Positions 2,827 to 12,070 of a stretch of 12,070 bases of DNA are shown piece by piece (position 1 is the first letter of the stretch; every line of letters begins with the position of its first letter). The notes under the pieces were generated by a model. The model was not told where the DNA came from and ran no database searches. It worked only from the letters and a program-made list of their open reading frames with translations. The translations under genes were made by a program, and so were the position numbers. This stretch comes from a virus (taxonomy: Duplodnaviria; Heunggongvirae; Uroviricota; Caudoviricetes): IMG/VR virus record IMGVR_UViG_3300029721_000142, one strand, 5' to 3'.

Positions 2827-2922
2827 TTGTTGGCGCAAGGTGCAGAAACGACGAAACCCGGCAGTGCGCTAACACTAACCGGGCTTCTAACCACCAACGA
2901 TAGCGAAAGTATCGAGGTAGCT

Positions 2923-3108
2923 ATGAGAAATCATACCACACACCCGCAAGGGCGGGACTCGCACGACCTGAATAAATACATCTGGCGTTTTATCGCCCTG
3001 AGCACGGCACAACCGCGCGTGATTACCATCGAGGCCACCAGCGAACAGGAAGCGCGTCAGCAATCTCCTGATGGCTGCGTGATGGTATTCGCTGCCCGTA
3101 TTCGCTAG
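2923..3108 (+). CDS. Small protein (61 aa), tentatively Icd-like/Ash-region-like; first gene of the early operon
   Basis: ATG at 2923 with RBS GAGGT 5 nt upstream. Protein MRNHTTHPQGRDSHDLNKYIWRFIALSTAQPRVITIEATSEQEARQQSPDGCVMVFAARIR. The ATSE.EAR....FAAR motif resembles small Icd-like proteins found upstream of replication genes in P4-like prophages (from memory, unverified). Confidence 0.45.
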   Translation: MRNHTTHPQGRDSHDLNKYIWRFIALSTAQPRVITIEATSEQEARQQSPDGCVMVFAARIR

Positions 3109-3794: not shown

Positions 3795-4094
3795 ATGAAA
3801 CTTAAATATTCTGGCTTAACTGCCAGTGGCAACACTCACCCTAAATTTACGCGCGGTGATATTTACCGCGACCAGTACGGCGGCACGGTAATGATTAAGG
3901 GCGTGGAAGAACGGCGCGTAACCTACCGCCGTGAAGGTTACGAATATGATTGCGTGATGCCTGTTTATCAGTTCCGGCGTGATTTTTCTCTGGTACAGAC
4001 CGCGCCGCATAACGTGCCCACCAGCAACGCCAGGGCACGGGCAAACATCCAGAAGCTGAAAACCATGATTAACGGATTCAGGGGCAAGAAATGA
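3795..4094 (+). CDS. Hypothetical protein (99 aa)
   Basis: ORF whose stop overlaps the rep start (ATGA at 4091-4094), implying translational coupling. No family recognised with confidence. Confidence 0.55.
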   Translation: MKLKYSGLTASGNTHPKFTRGDIYRDQYGGTVMIKGVEERRVTYRREGYEYDCVMPVYQFRRDFSLVQTAPHNVPTSNARARANIQKLKTMINGFRGKK

Positions 4095-5491
4095 AAAGCG
4101 CACCGAACTTAAAAAAACAGCCTTACGACAAGATGACCGAAGTCATTATTTTTGCGGGTAGTGATGCCTGGGCACATGCGAAACAGTGGCAGGAACAGGA
4201 CGGGCGACTGGCTGGCGATAATGTGCCTCCCGTTGTGCTGGCTGATGATCAACTGGATGAACTGGCAGACCTGAGAATCATCGACGAGGGGCGCTATTGT
4301 GTCCGGCTGTACAAGGCAGGCCACATCAGGCCATCAAATATTAATGCCATTGCGCACAAGCTGGCGGCGGCGGGTGTAACTGATGCGAATTATTACCCCG
4401 AAGGGATGCACAGCCATATGCGGGAGAACTGGCGCGAATACCTGGAACGGGTGCGCGGGAAAGAGCCGGTGGAAGAAAAAAACCACCAGCGAAAAACCAC
4501 GCTACCGATGAGCGTTGGATCTACCGGATACGACACGCAACTGGATTACGTGGTTAAGGGGATTATTCCGGCGGTATCGCTATGCAGCATATACGGGGCT
4601 AGCGGGTCCTATAAATCATTCCTTGCCGGATCGTGGGCGTGCCATGTTGCCACTGGTCGCCAGTGGGGAGGCCGCAGGGTTGCACATGGTGCGGTTCTCT
4701 ATGTGGTTGGTGAAGGCGGTATAGGTGTTCCGCGTCGTGTAAAAGCCTGGGAGGTTGTGCACGATGAGCAGGTGAAAAATCTGTATCTGGTAAACCGCCC
4801 CATCTTTCCGGCTGCCCCGCTTGATGTTGATGAAATGGTTATCGCTGCCCGTCAGGTGGAGCGGGAAACGGGTAAACCTGTACGCATGATTATTCTGGAT
4901 ACGCTGGCGCGTTGCTTTGGTGGGAATGATGAAAATGATTCCCGTGATATGGGGGCGTTTATCCGTGGTTGTGACGAACTGAAACGACGCACAGGGGCCA
5001 CGGTGCTGGTGGTTCACCATTCCGGCAAGGATGAGACGAAAGGCGCGCGCGGTTCCAGTGCATTTCGTGCTTCGCTGGATGCTGAATACCGGATACGCAG
5101 GGAGGACGCAGGAAGCGAAGCGCTGGTTATCTCATGCACCAAAATGAAGGACGCGGAGGAACTCAAAGAAGCCGCATATGACTTACGCGTGGTGGAGCTT
5201 TTTACCGACGCTGACGGTGAATTAATCACGTCGCTGGTGGTGGTGGATGATCCGCGCCCTCCTGTTGAACTGGAGCGCATCGAGGAGGCAGGGAACAAGA
5301 CGGAAAACCATACCGCGCTATGGGGGTGCATCCGTTCACGCACACAGAACGGCGACAAGTGCACGATCCCGCTGTTACGTGATGACATGAAAAAGCTGGG
5401 GTATGAAATGAAAAACTTCCGGCGCTGGCTGTACAAGCTGGAAAAAGATGGGGTTATTCGTATCGATGGGGATGATGTAGCGCCGCTATAA
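4091..5491 (+). CDS. Replication protein: RecA-fold RepA/DnaB-like ATPase (AAA_25 type) with an N-terminal TOPRIM-like region
   Basis: 466 aa. P-loop IYGASGSYKSFLAG, Walker B MIILDTLARC, and the RepA-type motif VLVVHHSGKDETKGARGSSAFRASLD. N-terminal EVIIFAGSDAWAHA ... PVVLADDQLDE is suggestive of a TOPRIM-like domain (inference). Followed immediately by an iteron array. Confidence 0.8.
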   Translation: MKSAPNLKKQPYDKMTEVIIFAGSDAWAHAKQWQEQDGRLAGDNVPPVVLADDQLDELADLRIIDEGRYCVRLYKAGHIRPSNINAIAHKLAAAGVTDANYYPEGMHSHMRENWREYLERVRGKEPVEEKNHQRKTTLPMSVGSTGYDTQLDYVVKGIIPAVSLCSIYGASGSYKSFLAGSWACHVATGRQWGGRRVAHGAVLYVVGEGGIGVPRRVKAWEVVHDEQVKNLYLVNRPIFPAAPLDVDEMVIAARQVERETGKPVRMIILDTLARCFGGNDENDSRDMGAFIRGCDELKRRTGATVLVVHHSGKDETKGARGSSAFRASLDAEYRIRREDAGSEALVISCTKMKDAEELKEAAYDLRVVELFTDADGELITSLVVVDDPRPPVELERIEEAGNKTENHTALWGCIRSRTQNGDKCTIPLLRDDMKKLGYEMKNFRRWLYKLEKDGVIRIDGDDVAPL

Positions 5492-6863: not shown

Positions 6864-7070
6864 ATGGCTGAAGAGAAAAAAGGCGGTGTTTCGGTGTACA
6901 TAAGCCCCGACATCGTGAAGGCGCTCAAGGAACGCCACCAGCAGAACGTAAAAGCAGGCATTGCGGCAGGACTTGATCCGCTGGCGATGGTTGAGCCGTC
7001 AACAGGCTGGCAGGTACGCGCCTATTTACGCGCGGCGCTGGGTATGAATCAGGTTCACGGGGGTGAATAA
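6864..7070 (+). CDS. Hypothetical protein (68 aa), first gene of the late/capsid operon
   Basis: ORF with a good RBS. Its stop overlaps the capsid gene start (TAATG), implying translational coupling. Function unknown; a scaffold or size-determination role is speculation. Confidence 0.6.
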   Translation: MAEEKKGGVSVYISPDIVKALKERHQQNVKAGIAAGLDPLAMVEPSTGWQVRAYLRAALGMNQVHGGE

Positions 7071-8125
7071 TGACAGTAAAAGCAATGGCACTTAACACTA
7101 ACCAGCTTTTTGCGTACCTGAATCGCGGGGATATTGCGGAATTTAAATTCAGTCCGCTGTTTACCACGCTGTTTTTCCCGAACGTGGCGACATTCAGCAC
7201 GCAAAACATCATGCTGGATACCCTGGACATTGAAGAAGTCACCATGTCGGCGTTTTGTTCGCCTATGGTGGGTAGCCAGGTTCAGCGCGATAAAGGGTAC
7301 GAAACCAGCACGATTAAACCTGGCTACATGAAGCCAAAGCACGAAATCGATCCAACGAAAACCATCATGCGCATGGCTGGAGAAGATCCGGCACAGCTTA
7401 ACGACCCTACCTATCGCCGTATGCGCCTGATTACTGGCAATATGCGCCGCCAGATAAACGCCATAAAAGCGCGCGTGGAATGGCTGGCGGTAAATGCGGT
7501 AACGACCGGAAAAAACATCATTGAAGGCGAAGGCATAGAGCGCTATGAAATCGACTGGAAGATACCGGAAAAAAACATCATAGAGCAGGCCGACGGGAAA
7601 AAATGGTCAGAGCAGGACAAAGAAACCCACGATCCAATCTATGATATCGAACTATACGCCGATCAGGCTGGTTGCCCCGCAAACGTCATGATTATGGGCG
7701 CTGAGGTATGGCGAACGTTACGCAGCTTTAAAAAATTCCGTGAGCTGTACGATCTTTCCCGTGGTTCAGAGTCCGCCGCAGAGCTGGCCTGTAAAAACCT
7801 GGGCGAAGTGGTGAGCTTTAAAGGCTATCTGGGCGATATTGCCCTTATCGTCTATTCCGGCAAATACACTGACAGCGACGGCACAGAAAAATATTTCCTT
7901 GAGCCTGATTTGCTTGTCCTGGGCAACACCAACAATAAAGGGCTGGTGGCCTATGGTGCGATTATGGATCAGGACGCAGTAAGAACGGGCGCAACGCAAA
8001 ACATGTTTTACCCGAAAAACTGGATTGAGGACGGCGATCCGGCGATTGAGTACGTGCAGACGCACAGCGCACCGCAGCCGGTTCCGGCAGATATTCGCAA
8101 ATTTGTTACCGTCAAAATTGGTTAA
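7070..8125 (+). CDS. Major capsid protein, lambda gpE-like (HK97 fold)
   Basis: 351 aa. Blocks of recalled similarity to lambda gpE (341 aa): EFKFSPLFTTLFF vs KFKFDPLFLRLFF; KPGYMKPKHEIDP vs TPGYVKPKHEVNP; DPTYRRMRLITGNMR vs DPAYRRRRIIMQNMR; KWSEQDKETHDPIYDIELYA vs EWSKRDKSTYDPTDDIEAYA; YPKNWIEDGDPAIEY vs YPKNWVTTGDPAREF. Similar length. Confidence 0.9.
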   Translation: MTVKAMALNTNQLFAYLNRGDIAEFKFSPLFTTLFFPNVATFSTQNIMLDTLDIEEVTMSAFCSPMVGSQVQRDKGYETSTIKPGYMKPKHEIDPTKTIMRMAGEDPAQLNDPTYRRMRLITGNMRRQINAIKARVEWLAVNAVTTGKNIIEGEGIERYEIDWKIPEKNIIEQADGKKWSEQDKETHDPIYDIELYADQAGCPANVMIMGAEVWRTLRSFKKFRELYDLSRGSESAAELACKNLGEVVSFKGYLGDIALIVYSGKYTDSDGTEKYFLEPDLLVLGNTNNKGLVAYGAIMDQDAVRTGATQNMFYPKNWIEDGDPAIEYVQTHSAPQPVPADIRKFVTVKIG

Positions 8126-8136
8126 CGGGGGATTCT

Positions 8137-8472
8137 ATGGACACTCCATACATTGAGTTATTTGCAGGCAGTCAGCAGGTCGCCACGACGCTGGTACATT
8201 TTGCCGCTGATGCTGGCGTTATTCAGGAATTTACCCCGCTGATGCTGGCGGACAATGGCGAGTTTAAGCCGTGGGATGGTAAGGAATCTGGCAAGGCTGT
8301 TTATCTGACCTCGTACCCTGTGGACACGTCAAAGCAGAAATCAGCACAGTGTTACAAGACGGGGATATTCAATATTGCCGCCGTTAACTGGCCTGAGAGC
8401 GTCGACACCGATGCGAAAAAATGCGCCGCCTTTGCGGGTTCCGGCGTATCCGTTCAGCCGCTGGCCCGATAA
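8137..8472 (+). CDS. Head decoration protein, lambda gpD-like
   Basis: 111 aa vs lambda gpD 110 aa. Recalled motif similarity: TPLMLADNGEFKPWDG vs TPLMLDTSSRKLVAWDG; YKTGIF vs YKSGTF; WPE; KKCAAFAGSGVS vs KKRTAFAGTAIS. Gene order is E-like then D-like, the reverse of lambda. Confidence 0.85.
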   Translation: MDTPYIELFAGSQQVATTLVHFAADAGVIQEFTPLMLADNGEFKPWDGKESGKAVYLTSYPVDTSKQKSAQCYKTGIFNIAAVNWPESVDTDAKKCAAFAGSGVSVQPLAR

Positions 8473-8898: not shown

Positions 8899-8903
8899 GA
8901 CAA

Positions 8904-8926
8904 GGCCGGAGAAATCCGGCTTTTTT
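8904..8926 (+). terminator. Rho-independent terminator (GCCGGA gaaa TCCGGC + T6)
   Basis: Seen directly. The hairpin is nearly identical to the one at 6633-6654 (loop gaaa vs gcaa). Confidence 0.65.
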
Positions 8927-8927
8927 A

Positions 8928-8992
8928 CGGGTCCTTCCTGGAATTATGGCCCGTTACGGGGCGGCGACCTCGCGGGTTTTCGCTATTTATGA
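8928..8992 (+). other. cos-like element, left copy: cosQ-like flank + cosN (GGGCGGCGACCT, 8959-8970) + 22 bp of lambda-like left-end sequence; no R-site array
   Basis: Seen directly: cgggtccttcctggaattatggcccgttacg GGGCGGCGACCT cgcgggttttcgctatttatga. The 12-mer equals the phage lambda cohesive end, and the flanks resemble the lambda right end (ACGGGTCCTTTCCGG...GTTACG) and left end (CGCGGGTTTTCGCTATTTATGA), quoted from memory. It is an inverted duplicate (63/65) of 9676-9740. Confidence 0.75.
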
Positions 8993-9059
8993 CGTTTTTC
9001 CGTGAAGGTGACACCACCACCACTTGATTAATATTTAACCATGCAGTTAAGGTAACATT

Positions 9060-9494
9060 ATGATTGATAAAGCTTGTTTTGTAAGTCAGCAGGAAATAGC
9101 TGAACATTTCAAGGTTAACAGAACCACTATTCGCGCATGGACCAAACAGGGGATGCCGTATCTTAATGCGGATCGCGGAAAGTCTGGCGGTTATCACATC
9201 GGGCATACATTGCTTTGGTCTTCAGGTAAAAGCCGTCTTGAGGCCATCAGATATCACGTAGAAACCAGTGCGCTGGAAAAAATTATGTTTGCCAGGCTGC
9301 TTTCATCTGAGCGTGACGAGTACTCCAGTGAAGAAACAGAACATCGATTTGATGAAGGTTTGCAGATTTACGGCTATTCACCGGAAGATGTGAGCAAGGC
9401 ACGAAATAAAATGGCTGGCTTTCTGGCTGGGTGGCGTCATGCCGTAAGCGTTCGCCGTGCCAGCATGGAGCAATCAGCCGATACAGAACAGTAA
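9060..9494 (+). CDS. Small terminase subunit-like protein with a Nu1-type N-terminal DNA-binding domain; candidate packaging-specificity or redirection factor
   Basis: 144 aa. N-terminus MIDKACFVSQQEIAEHFKVNRTTIRAWTKQGMPYLNADRGKSGGYHI parallels lambda Nu1 MEVNKKQLADIFGASIRTIQNWQEQGMPVLRGGGKGNEVLY (winged HTH). The C-terminal half is unlike the Nu1 region that binds gpA. The gene sits between the two cos copies. Confidence 0.8.
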   Translation: MIDKACFVSQQEIAEHFKVNRTTIRAWTKQGMPYLNADRGKSGGYHIGHTLLWSSGKSRLEAIRYHVETSALEKIMFARLLSSERDEYSSEETEHRFDEGLQIYGYSPEDVSKARNKMAGFLAGWRHAVSVRRASMEQSADTEQ

Positions 9495-9562
9495 AGCCGA
9501 TAACTTGTTAATCACTCGCAGCAATGCATGTGATTTGTGCACACTTTCGGTTAACTGGTTCG

Positions 9563-9740
9563 ATGTCCGGTTTTAGTGTCTGTTTTTTGCGCATGTCCGG
9601 TTCATGGAAAGCATGTTTTTATATTTTTCATATGGTTAACTTGCAGAGAAACCGGACATGGATCCCGAAAAATTTTCATAAATAGTGAAAACGCGCGAGG
9701 TCGCCGCCCCGTAACGGGCCATAATTCCAGGAAGGACCCG
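9563..9740 (-). other. Complete cos-like site in inverted orientation: cosQ-like flank, cosN (9698-9709), three R-type repeats ATGTCCGGTT, AT-rich bend region
   Basis: Seen directly. cosN lies on the minus strand as aggtcgccgccc. Repeat copies are at 9563-9572 and 9593-9602 (direct) and 9650-9659 (inverted, nearest cosN), with an AT-rich segment at 9611-9633 between them. This mirrors the lambda cosN-R3-I1-R2-R1 layout but with a different repeat sequence (lambda R elements contain CGTTTCC). Confidence 0.75.
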
Positions 9741-9773
9741 ACGACACCAGACTATCAGAACGATGGGGGCACA

Positions 9774-10055
9774 ATGACAGAAGCCGAAATACTGCGATTA
9801 ATCCGCCGCGTTGCCGGAATCAGCCAGCAGGCCGACGAACAGACCACGCAGCCGGACAGCGTGACCGCCGAAAATTATGTTCGTGTGGTTGCTGAGGTGA
9901 TTCGCCGTAATGGTATCCAGCTTAATGATGTGGATATGCGCAACATACGGATCCGCGTTCTTGAAATGCTGGCCTACAATCGCCGCGTGGCACTGTATCG
10001 GGAAACGGAGAAAATTACGTACCACTGGAAGAAGCCGGAGCGGTTGCGGCGGTAA
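9774..10055 (+). CDS. Hypothetical protein (93 aa), last island gene
   Basis: ATG at 9774 with RBS gatggggg 5 nt upstream. The ORF-track start at 9576 would read through the cos repeat and is rejected. No family recognised. Confidence 0.55.
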   Translation: MTEAEILRLIRRVAGISQQADEQTTQPDSVTAENYVRVVAEVIRRNGIQLNDVDMRNIRIRVLEMLAYNRRVALYRETEKITYHWKKPERLRR

Positions 10056-10057
10056 CT

Positions 10058-10217
10058 GGTTGATATTTTCGAAATTCGCCAGCGGCGAACATCGGGGAAA
10101 CCAGCCTAACCCGTTGATATTTTCGGGAACCTCAAATTGAAGAGGTCGGAAACATAACCCGTCATATTCTGGATGCTGATAATTACCACGCAGCCCATTA
10201 AGGCCTAACCCGTTGAT
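10058..10217. repeat. Degenerate direct repeats at the island/chromosome junction (GGTTGATATTTTCG; CCTAACCCGTTGATATTTTCGGG; TAACCCGTCATATT; GCCTAACCCGTTGAT)
   Basis: Seen directly at 10058-10071, 10105-10127, 10155-10168 and 10203-10217. Candidate right attachment-site arm sites; the left att is outside the window so a core direct repeat cannot be confirmed. Confidence 0.4.
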
Positions 10218-10609: not shown

Positions 10610-12070
10610 TTATTCATCTTTCGGCGCAGAATGCTGGCGACCAAAAATCACCTCCATCCGCGCACCGCCCAGCATGCTCTCTCCGGCGACGATTTTACCC
10701 TCATATTGCTCGGTGATTTCGCGGGCTACCGCCAGCCCTACACCTTGCCCAGGGCGTAAAGTATCAACCCGTTGACCACGGTCGAAAATGACCTCTCGCT
10801 TGCTTAATGGAATACCGGGGCCATCATCCTCGACCACAATATAGAGATGCTCGTCGGTTTGCCTTGCAGAAATTTCGACAAACTCGAGGCAATATTTACA
10901 GGCATTATCCAGCACGTTGCCCATCACCTCGACAAAATCGTTCTGCTCACCGACAAAGCTGATCTCTGGCGAAATATCGAGAGAGATATTGACCCCTTTG
11001 CGTTGATACACTTTGTTCAGCGCTGAGGTGAGATTGTCCAGCAGTGGGGCGACCGGATGCAGCTCGCGGCTGAGCAATGTCCCGCCGCGCATACTGGCAC
11101 GATGCAGGTAGTAGCCAATTTGCTGTGAAATGCGGCTGATTTGCTCCAGCATTACCGGCTCAGCATCACTGACGCTCATCTTTTCACTACGCAGAGAACG
11201 CAGCGTACTTTGCAGCACCGCCAGTGGCGTTTTCAGACTATGGGTCAGGTCGGTGAGCGTCGTACGGTATTTGTCGTAACGTTCGCGTTCACTTTTTAAC
11301 AATCGGTTCAGGTTTCGTACCAGACTGGTCAGTTCTCGCGTTGTGGCTGGATTGAGCAATTCGCGGTTATGTTCTTCCAGTTCGCGGACTTCTTTTGCCA
11401 GGGCTTCGATGGGGCGTAAACTCCACCAGGCGGCGACCCACAGCAGCGGGATCACTAACAGCAGATTGGCTGAGAGCACATAGATAAACCAGCTCCAGAC
11501 CATATAGGAACTTTTTAGCTCCACCGGAATGGTATCCACCACCACAATGGTTAATTTTGGCATCCGCGATGTTGCCGGGTAGACGTTTACTGCCACCGAG
11601 TGGGTCATCTCCGCGTCGTCATCATCTTCCCGCACTTCCTGCAACTGTTGCTGTATCGAATGATCTCCACTCAGCAAGAGGCTGGTATCGTTAACATCCG
11701 CTTCAATTTCATGAAAACCATTCGATTTCAGCCAGTCAGGCTGGATCATCTTCATCAGCCAGGGCACGTCACGTTGCGCCCATAAAAGCTGCCCGTTCTC
11801 ATCATAAATTAGCGTCATGGTGGGGCTTTGCTTGTCGATATTTTCGGGTAACTCGACATGCAACTTATTGTTTTCCCACTTCGCAAGGGTATAGAACAGA
11901 TTGCTCTCGCCACGTAACAGCCGAAACGTAGTTTTATCGAAACTGACGCTATAACCGATCAGCGCGACCATTCCGTAGGCAAGCGAAAGCACCAGTACTA
12001 CCGCTGCCGTTGCCAACAGAAAACGTACCCGCAGCGAGAGCGGGAAAAAAAGACGCAGTAATTTTTTCAT
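10610..12070 (-). CDS. phoQ: Sensor histidine kinase PhoQ (PhoP/PhoQ two-component system)
   Basis: 486-aa ORF spanning to the window edge. Two transmembrane segments flank a periplasmic sensor domain with the acidic patch EDDDDAE, followed by HAMP, the phosphoacceptor His box ([12 protein letters not shown]) and an ATPase domain with G boxes (DDGPGI, GQGVGL). Sequence matches E. coli PhoQ as I recall it. Confidence 0.97.

Follow-up and report, generated by a model that had tools for sequence, protein, structure and literature searches.

The window analysed here, a stretch of 12,070 nucleotides from the IMG/VR virus record IMGVR_UViG_3300029721_000142 (Duplodnaviria; Heunggongvirae; Uroviricota; Caudoviricetes), is a phage-inducible chromosomal island (PICI) of the EcCICFT073 type, or a mosaic relative of EcCICFT073. 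In it the gene rppA is bracketed by two lambda-type cos sites in inverted orientation, and it is virtually certain that this pair is the published cos1/rppA/cos2. One of the two sites, cos2, is very probably a copy of the cos site of a lambdoid phage of the PhiR12 type, with cosQ, cosN and R boxes all included. The segment between the cos sites exists in both orientations in nature, a conclusion that can be held with high confidence. That two inverted cos sites flank rppA was already known; the phage origin of cos2, the natural inversion of the cos-bounded segment, and a conserved CACCACCACCAC block at cos1 appear to be new.

The inverted pair and its published genetics

A repeat search places the inverted arms at positions 8928-9005 and 9663-9740; each is 78 nt long, and they are 91% complementary and 657 nt apart. 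Within them the 65-nt stretches 8928-8992 and 9676-9740 match at 63 of 65 positions, and the first 47 nt (8928-8974 and 9694-9740) are identical; the two copies can be told apart at two positions within I2, 8975 and 8982. A perfect inverted match of 47 nt within 12 kb is not attributable to chance. The cohesive-end 12-mer GGGCGGCGACCT is found in only two places in the whole window, at 8959 on the plus strand and at 9698 on the minus strand, each time preceded by TTACG. About 30 nt upstream of each cosN lies cosQ, ACGGGTCCTT, and an I2-like block follows downstream; these columns are invariant in an alignment with lambda, phage 21, and PhiR12. When lambda(DE3), phage 21, and PhiR12_1 are aligned with the two copies, both display the conserved cosQ (CGGGTCCTT), cosN, and the I2-like pattern TCGCG..TTTTC.CTATTTATGA. 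An earlier reading of the window from its letters alone, the sequence-only reading, had proposed an inverted 65-bp pair of lambda-type sites, each with the exact 12-mer; this description is confirmed. Nor is the inverted duplicate peculiar to one strain, since the pair occurs in other genomes.

The assignment of the two copies to cos1 and cos2 was made from the sequences and primers in the supplements of Fillol-Salom 2018 and 2019. The sequence listed there as 'CFT073 cos.1' maps to the left copy, beginning at 8924, and 'CFT073 cos.2' maps to the reverse complement of the right copy, ending at 9744. The left arm (8928-9005, plus strand) is thus the published cos1, with its cosQ core at 8928-8938, cosN GGGCGGCGACCT at 8959-8970, and the I2-like block at 8971-8999. 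The right arm (9663-9740, minus strand) is the published cos2, with cosN at 9698-9709 and the cosQ core at 9730-9740. The region matches positions 1387478-1388389 of E. coli CFT073 at 99.2% identity, and the 751 bp from cosN to cosN, which include rppA, show no difference between window and CFT073.

The gene enclosed by the sites had been described as TerS-like, and its product does have a TerS-like DNA-binding domain. It is rppA (9060-9494, plus strand), encoding 144 amino acids, the same protein as WP_000565609.1 of CFT073. The N-terminus, MIDKACFVSQ, agrees with that of RppA in the published alignment. Residues 2-125 match the RppC structure in the Protein Data Bank (PDB 6hlk, E=5e-31), a match that comprises a TerS-like winged-helix domain and a dimerisation domain.

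The genetics of this array are well documented. EcCICFT073 carries two cos sites, and plasmids with either cos1 or cos2 were transduced by lambda and phi80; for the island itself, deletion of cos1 lowers transfer, deletion of cos2 raises it, and the double deletion abolishes it (Fillol-Salom et al. 2018, ISME J, PMC6092414). Lambda, phi80, and CFT073 phage 4 have all been published as mobilising the island. The expectation that the terminase of a lambdoid helper would use these cosQ-cosN sites is therefore supported, if indirectly, each cloned cos being sufficient to make a plasmid transducible. RppA binds the helper TerS (Fillol-Salom et al. 2019, Mol Cell, PMC6739421) and boosts the transfer of cos1 plasmids only; when the cosB regions of cos1 and cos2 were swapped, only the cosB of cos1 responded to RppA, and a phi80 chimera with the cosB of cos1 became RppA-dependent (PMC6739421). 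Helper-dependent transfer, and interference with the helper through the Rpp-TerS interaction, are likewise published for CFT073 (PMC6739421). In those parts of the Fillol-Salom papers that were available, neither inversion nor a phage origin of cos2 is reported, and the question 'why two cos sites?' is listed as open.

The primers for the phi80 chimera, phi80quimera-cosB-3m/4c, map to 9000 and 9140 of the window and delimit the cosB of cos1 (9000-9140, plus strand), the stretch recognised by RppA-TerS in the published chimeras. It overlaps the promoter region of rppA and the first 81 nt of the gene. The sequence-only reading had called the left copy cosB-less and the right copy the only one with a cosB. 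The left copy indeed contains none of the ATGTCCGGTT boxes that mark the right one, but the label is wrong, as 9000-9140 confers RppA-dependent packaging in the published swaps and in the phi80 chimera. Nor does the second half of the claim survive the deletion phenotypes and the exclusive response of the cos1 cosB to RppA. The functional assignment of the two copies in that reading is reversed.

Relatives of the two cosB regions

The cosB of cos2 (9563-9659, minus strand) consists of three ATGTCCGGTT boxes around an AT-rich spacer: one at 9650-9659 (+51 from cosN, the R3 position), one at 9593-9602 (+108, inverted), and one at 9563-9572 (+138, inverted). Exact matches to ATGTCCGGTT number three, starting at 9563 and 9593 on the plus strand and at 9650 on the minus strand, all within 97 bp; with one mismatch allowed there are four matches, against 0.69 expected by chance. 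The corresponding offsets are +53 for R3, +114 for the inverted R2, and +154 for R1 in lambda, and +54, +112, and +154 in phage 21. The lambda layout cosN-R3-I1-R2-R1, attributed earlier to the right copy, is thus partly upheld: the three boxes, the AT-rich spacer, and the R3 and R2 positions agree with it, whereas the third box is oriented opposite to lambda R1. The two island sites share with the cos of lambda and phage 21 an identical cosN 12-mer, the conserved cosQ and I2 block, and, in cos2, R3/R2 box positions within 6 nt. They differ in the boxes of cos2, which read CATGTCCGGTT rather than CGTTTCC (lambda) or (C/G)(A/G)TGTCGG (phage 21), in the lack of a terS gene after cos2, and in the lack of a triple box in cos1.

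Much closer relatives of cos2 were found in a phage collection. Read in its own orientation, cos2 is 93% identical over 179 nt, from cosQ to R1, to the Escherichia phages PhiR12_1, _2, _4, and _5. Between +43 and +147 after cosN, the region of the boxes, 104 of 105 positions are identical to the cos of PhiR12_1, and the CATGTCCGGTT boxes stand at +51 (forward), +108, and +138 (both inverted) in island and phage alike. In PhiR12_1 the matching stretch lies directly upstream of a gene annotated 'terminase subunit Nu1', whose product has the Pfam Phage_Nu1 domain. The boxes had been regarded as island-specific repeats that set the specificity of packaging; they belong to PhiR12-type phages too. 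A literature search on the PhiR12 phages returned unrelated papers only.

The likeness ends abruptly. Homology to the phage stops at +148 and gives way to the 3' end of rppA in antisense; for this reason cos2 is to be read as a copy of the site and not of a phage packaging operon. At +146 the phage has in addition a forward half-site, ATGACCGGTT; together with the +138 box it makes up a near-palindrome, and it is also present in the island of E. coli 2012C-4221 (L018). Compared with the cos of PhiR12-type phages (PV340549 and relatives), the island copy has neither this half-site nor an adjacent Nu1 gene, and its cosQ-cosN spacer differs.

Two further observations bear on what the boxes may do. 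In seven cos2-type sequences, one from a phage and six from islands, all 30 box columns are constant, whereas 14 of the 75 columns elsewhere between +43 and +147 vary (Fisher one-sided p=0.006, from few and related sequences). Among 5426 complete E. coli genomes, about a fifth (1154) carry a PhiR12-type cosB along with the 5' portion of its terS. The helpers tested in the literature have a lambda-type cosB (lambda, phi80) or a 21-type cosB (CFT073 phage 4), and none is of the PhiR12 type.

The cosB of cos1 is built differently, with no triple repeat and a single conserved block from +54 after cosN, the R3 position of lambda (CACCACCACCAC-TTGATTAATATTTAA, 9012-9038, plus strand). At the R3 position this block reads CACCACCACCAC-TTGATTAA, and it is kept in cos sites that accompany rpp genes in E. 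coli, Klebsiella, and Salmonella. The comparison covered five sources, namely the window (RppA), the E. coli RppB island L024, Klebsiella L020, and the Salmonella contigs L023 and L027; the rpp relatives were found by protein search and look-up of the encoding contigs, a cross-species scan of genome contigs with the RppA protein having given no match. In these sites CACCACCACCAC followed by (T/A)TGATT(A/G)A is retained at a fixed distance from a TTATGA block, despite differing cosN sequences. Such conservation makes the block a candidate Rpp recognition element. A phage counterpart of the cos1 cosB was sought in the phage collection, with no match beyond about +90 and none extending past cosQ-cosN-I2.

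Inversion of the segment and the surrounding island

A query made of the left flank, the arm, and the reverse complement of the interior was searched against complete genomes. In 15 complete genomes the flipped junction was recovered as one uninterrupted match covering 100% of the query, and in a further 9 the match covered 93%. By arrangement, the cosB of cos2 (cosB2) stands beside the right flank, as in the window, in 41 complete genomes, and the left flank stands beside the cosB of cos1 (cosB1) in 68, as compared with the 15 clean flips. From the difference between 68 and 41 it follows that some 27 islands have cosB1 with a different right-hand site. Among the contexts of the exact RppA protein, 2 of 10 are flipped.

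The clearest case is strain WP4-S17-ESBL-08 (L004), in which the island occupies the same phoQ site and rppA, whose protein accession is the same, is found on the other strand; the Prokaryotic Genome Annotation Pipeline (PGAP) calls the gene intact. Positions 9149-9961 of L004 are the exact reverse complement of window positions 8928-9740 (813/813), with collinear flanks. There is no difference between the two in 1900 bp on the left, in the 751 bp inside, or in 560 bp on the right; the remaining island and the phoQ flank differ. The naturally invertible unit of the window is therefore 8928-9740, with the exchange inside the identical 47-bp stretches 8928-8974 and 9694-9740. Among the roles suggested earlier for the second copy, that of a substrate for recombinational inversion is the one to which the 15 flipped genomes lend substance. 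A literature search combining PICI, cos site, and inversion found nothing. A claim of at least two independent clean flips was considered and dropped: the flipped islands L004, L008, and L009 are not mutually closest, but zero-length branches permit a single event, and they have the phoQ flank in common.

The arms themselves carry traces of exchange. The left cosQ-cosN spacer has two alleles, one of them identical to the right arm, so that arm identity extends over 47 bp in the window and L004 as against 25 bp in CFT073. All 15 clean flips carry the 47-bp allele, and no flip occurs among the islands sampled with the 25-bp allele; the sample is small and clonal. The I2 regions are mosaic among islands. 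A left arm bearing the cosQ spacer of the right arm can be explained by gene conversion, and would not be explained by cutting at cosN. Throughout, cosQ and cosN are intact in all copies compared.

Other islands combine these elements differently. In strain 142, L029, cosB1-rppA' on the left is paired with a third cosB on the right, 'cosB3', which has ACAACAACC boxes; L005, L016, and L017 have cosB2 with rpp remnants only on the left and cosB3 on the right; and L018 has on the left a fuller, phage-like cosB2 running into the first 9 codons of Nu1, with cosB3 again on the right. The boxes of cosB3 stand at about +51, +111 (inverted), and +188 from cosN (L029 2600-2800; L005 9480-9700; L018 3100-3290). 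This type was found in islands only, in 46 complete genomes, and a search of phage and prophage collections gave no counterpart beyond cosQ-cosN-I2. Downstream of the fuller cosB2 of L018, a 69-amino-acid open reading frame (ORF; 2858-3067) opens with the first 9 codons of Nu1 from a PhiR12-type phage and continues in frame into the C-terminal half of RppA; its product has no DNA-binding domain.

An RppB island (L024 2362-3162) has the same geometry as the window, with 72-nt arms that are 78% alike and 657 nt between them. Its cosN differs from that of the window and between its own arms (GGGTACGTGTACGCGC and GGGTAGCCATACGCGC), and its right-hand boxes, TTCCGGTT and AACCGGAA, have the core TCCGGTT in common with the boxes of cos2. 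For the right cos of this island, too, the phage collections searched held no counterpart beyond cosQ-cosN-I2. An inverted second cos thus persists across at least four architectures of island, as well as in RppB islands, whose cosN is of another type; the pairs of cosB1 and cosB3 are also inverted. In NZ_CM182088.1 and in LH50-c (NZ_CP100500.1), at least two islands of the EcCICFT073 family reside in one genome, at different sites and with different cosB combinations.

The rest of the window is in keeping with its identity as a PICI. The annotation of CFT073 places the island between roxA and phoQ and lists an integrase, a regulator, a primase, a single-stranded DNA-binding protein (SSB), a lambda E-type capsid protein, a D-type decoration protein, and small ORFs. 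Pfam searches with the ORFs of the window give the same kind of layout, with an integrase, an AAA_25 replication protein, SSB, Phage_cap_E, and HDPD, and the attachment location is again the roxA/phoQ site. Thus window and EcCICFT073 (PMC6092414, PMC6739421) agree in element type, site, the 751 bp from cosN to cosN, and the RppA protein; they differ in the left-arm cosQ-cosN spacer, which in the window is converted to the right-arm allele (47 versus 25 bp of arm identity), and in the replication module. The latter encodes an AAA_25 protein of 466 amino acids in the window (4091-5491) and a D5_N/DUF5906 primase of 584 amino acids in CFT073 and L004 (compared over L001 5764-7518). The island is therefore mosaic, with a replication module that differs and yet a cos-rppA-cos unit that is 100% identical over 751 bp.

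Upstream of the array lie genes for a lambda E-type major capsid protein (7070-8125, PF03864) and a D-type decoration protein (8137-8472, PF02924). Such genes are known in Gram-negative PICIs and have been reported to be unnecessary for transfer. A hairpin followed by a T-run (GGCCGGAGAAATCCGGC TTTTTT, 8902-8927, plus strand; -14.1 kcal/mol, z=-3.07, then U6) closes this capsid-like operon, and the left arm begins directly after it; a consensus terminator scan of the window did not list the hairpin, and the promoter and terminator scan gave weak matches only. Just beyond the right arm, a 93-amino-acid ORF (9774-10055), which has no Pfam hit, is kept in every island architecture examined. Between this ORF and phoQ, close to the right end of the island, copies of AAC(C/T)(C/G)GTTGATATTTTCG are found at 10053-10071, 10107-10125, and 10207-10216 in direct and at 10758-10775 in inverted orientation (repeat families D5, D7, and I7); they may be arm-type sites for the integrase or att-associated sites.

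Function of the second site and origin of the inversion

An explanation that accommodates these observations assigns distinct roles to the two sites. According to the published genetics with lambda and phi80, cos1 (left, plus strand) with its cosB at 9000-9140 is the initiation site for the complex of RppA with helper TerS. The ATGTCCGGTT boxes of cos2 would be the R boxes bound by the TerS of PhiR12-type phages, and there is perhaps an even chance that cos2 lets such phages, a second and very common family of helpers, package the island directly without Rpp. With both cosB sides facing inward, each site could package the whole concatemer, in opposite directions, and a flip of the 751 bp from cosN to cosN would leave the immediate context of either site unchanged; recombination between the arms could therefore flip the cassette at little cost, and both orientations would persist. 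Unlike a direct pair, an inverted pair would not lose rppA by recombination. The flip most likely proceeds by homologous recombination or by gene conversion, perhaps with terminase breaks at cosN as a stimulus, and the inversion itself would be a near-neutral by-product of recombination between the arms. As a whole, this combination of RppA-TerS initiation at cos1, Rpp-independent packaging from a PhiR12-type copy at cos2, and near-neutral inversion is favoured, with modest confidence.

Several considerations weigh against it. The cos2 of the window is without the forward half-site ATGACCGGTT at +146. With lambda and phi80, deletion of cos2 raises transfer, so the site can be costly (PMC6092414). 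The rpp islands of Klebsiella and Salmonella show a single cos. The sampled flipped islands may descend from one event. Finally, no phage in the collections searched offers a counterpart to cosB3 or to the right cos of the RppB island, and the generalisation that every second cos copies a helper is unsupported.

Some of these points would also fit a cos2 without function, left over from recombination with a PhiR12-type phage, tolerated and unselected. The gain in transfer upon its deletion, the missing half-site, the occupation of the same place by cosB3 in other islands, and the sufficiency of one cos for rpp islands of other genera are all consistent with a relic. A relic would not be expected to keep its boxes invariant while the neighbouring spacers vary, as they do even in L017, the most diverged copy, although the sequences behind that statistic are few and related. 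Also against it are the intact cosQ and cosN of every copy, and the retention of an inverted second cos in at least four architectures as well as in RppB islands, whose cosN differs. That cos2 is a mere leftover is thus a possibility to be taken seriously, if an unlikely one.

As for the inversion, the helper terminase might itself bring it about by cutting both cosN sites and freeing a 751-bp fragment with the same 12-nt overhangs, which could be religated either way. The geometry read from the sequence permits this, both inner ends being 5'-GGGCGGCGACCT and both outer ends its complement; and in islands like L005 a cosQ spacer of the left-flank type joins a cosB side of the cos2 type within 25 bp around cosN. 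On the other hand, the left arm of the window has the cosQ spacer of the right arm, a product that gene conversion can yield and cosN cutting cannot. The restriction of flips to the allele with 47 bp of identity, with none in the sampled 25-bp allele, fits a dependence on homology length, within a small clonal sample. Inversion by terminase seems improbable for these reasons. A fuller version, in which the cassette flip-flops through such cutting and religation while its two cosB types, Rpp-specific and PhiR12-type, provide two independent helper specificities, would likewise be a long shot.

It is very unlikely that the segment is a programmed, phase-variable inverton that controls the expression of rppA or the choice of helper. 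Inverted repeats do flank a small segment that is present in both orientations, and weak promoter-like matches for rppA from the promoter scan fall within it. In the Mu G/Gin and P1 C/Cin systems and in bacterial invertons, as in the window, a short segment bounded by inverted repeats occurs in both orientations; the cassette differs from them in having no dedicated invertase, in having terminase sites as its repeats, and in showing no obvious change of coding or promoter output. No invertase or recombinase gene lies in or beside the segment, which contains rppA only and is neighboured by a capsid-associated ORF and the 93-amino-acid ORF; the integrase of the island lies some 8 kb distant. The arms are cos sites rather than recombinase sites, and after a flip each cos retains its cosB and rppA retains its upstream region.

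The original proposal, that the right copy with island-specific R repeats is the true initiation site and the left copy a cosB-less terminator, decoy, or relic, appealed to the three boxes at lambda-like R3/R2 positions in the right copy only; it is barely tenable given the opposite outcome of the published deletions and cosB swaps with lambda and phi80, the sharing of the boxes with phages, and the CACCACCACCAC block at the R3 position of the left copy, conserved in several genera. Inverted repeats can mislead assemblers, and the chance that the flipped orientation is an artefact of assembly is negligible when the arms (78 bp) are below single-read length, when the flip is seen in 15 complete genomes from different laboratories and sources and in the NCBI assemblies L008 and L009, and when the PGAP annotation shows rppA intact on the other strand.

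Packaging through a copy of the helper's cos is familiar from SaPIbov5, SaPIbov4, and the helper-embedded satellite 11capE; two putative cos sites have been reported in SaPIbov4, and 11capE shares 258 bp, at 90% identity, with the cos region of its helper. The island described here differs from these in joining a helper-type cos to an Rpp-specific cos, the two mutually inverted. It is a satellite that pairs a packaging site of its own Rpp system with one copied from a prophage family that about one fifth of complete E. coli genomes carry. If the proposed explanation is correct, PhiR12-type phages would form a second class of helpers independent of Rpp, a concrete prediction that is open to test. 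The inversion polymorphism indicates that cos sites serve as recombination substrates inside satellites, and the conserved CACCACCACCAC block supplies a candidate for the recognition element of Rpp. The three new points, namely that cos2 derives from a phage, that the segment inverts in nature, and that cos1 has a conserved block, are modest, testable additions to a known system.

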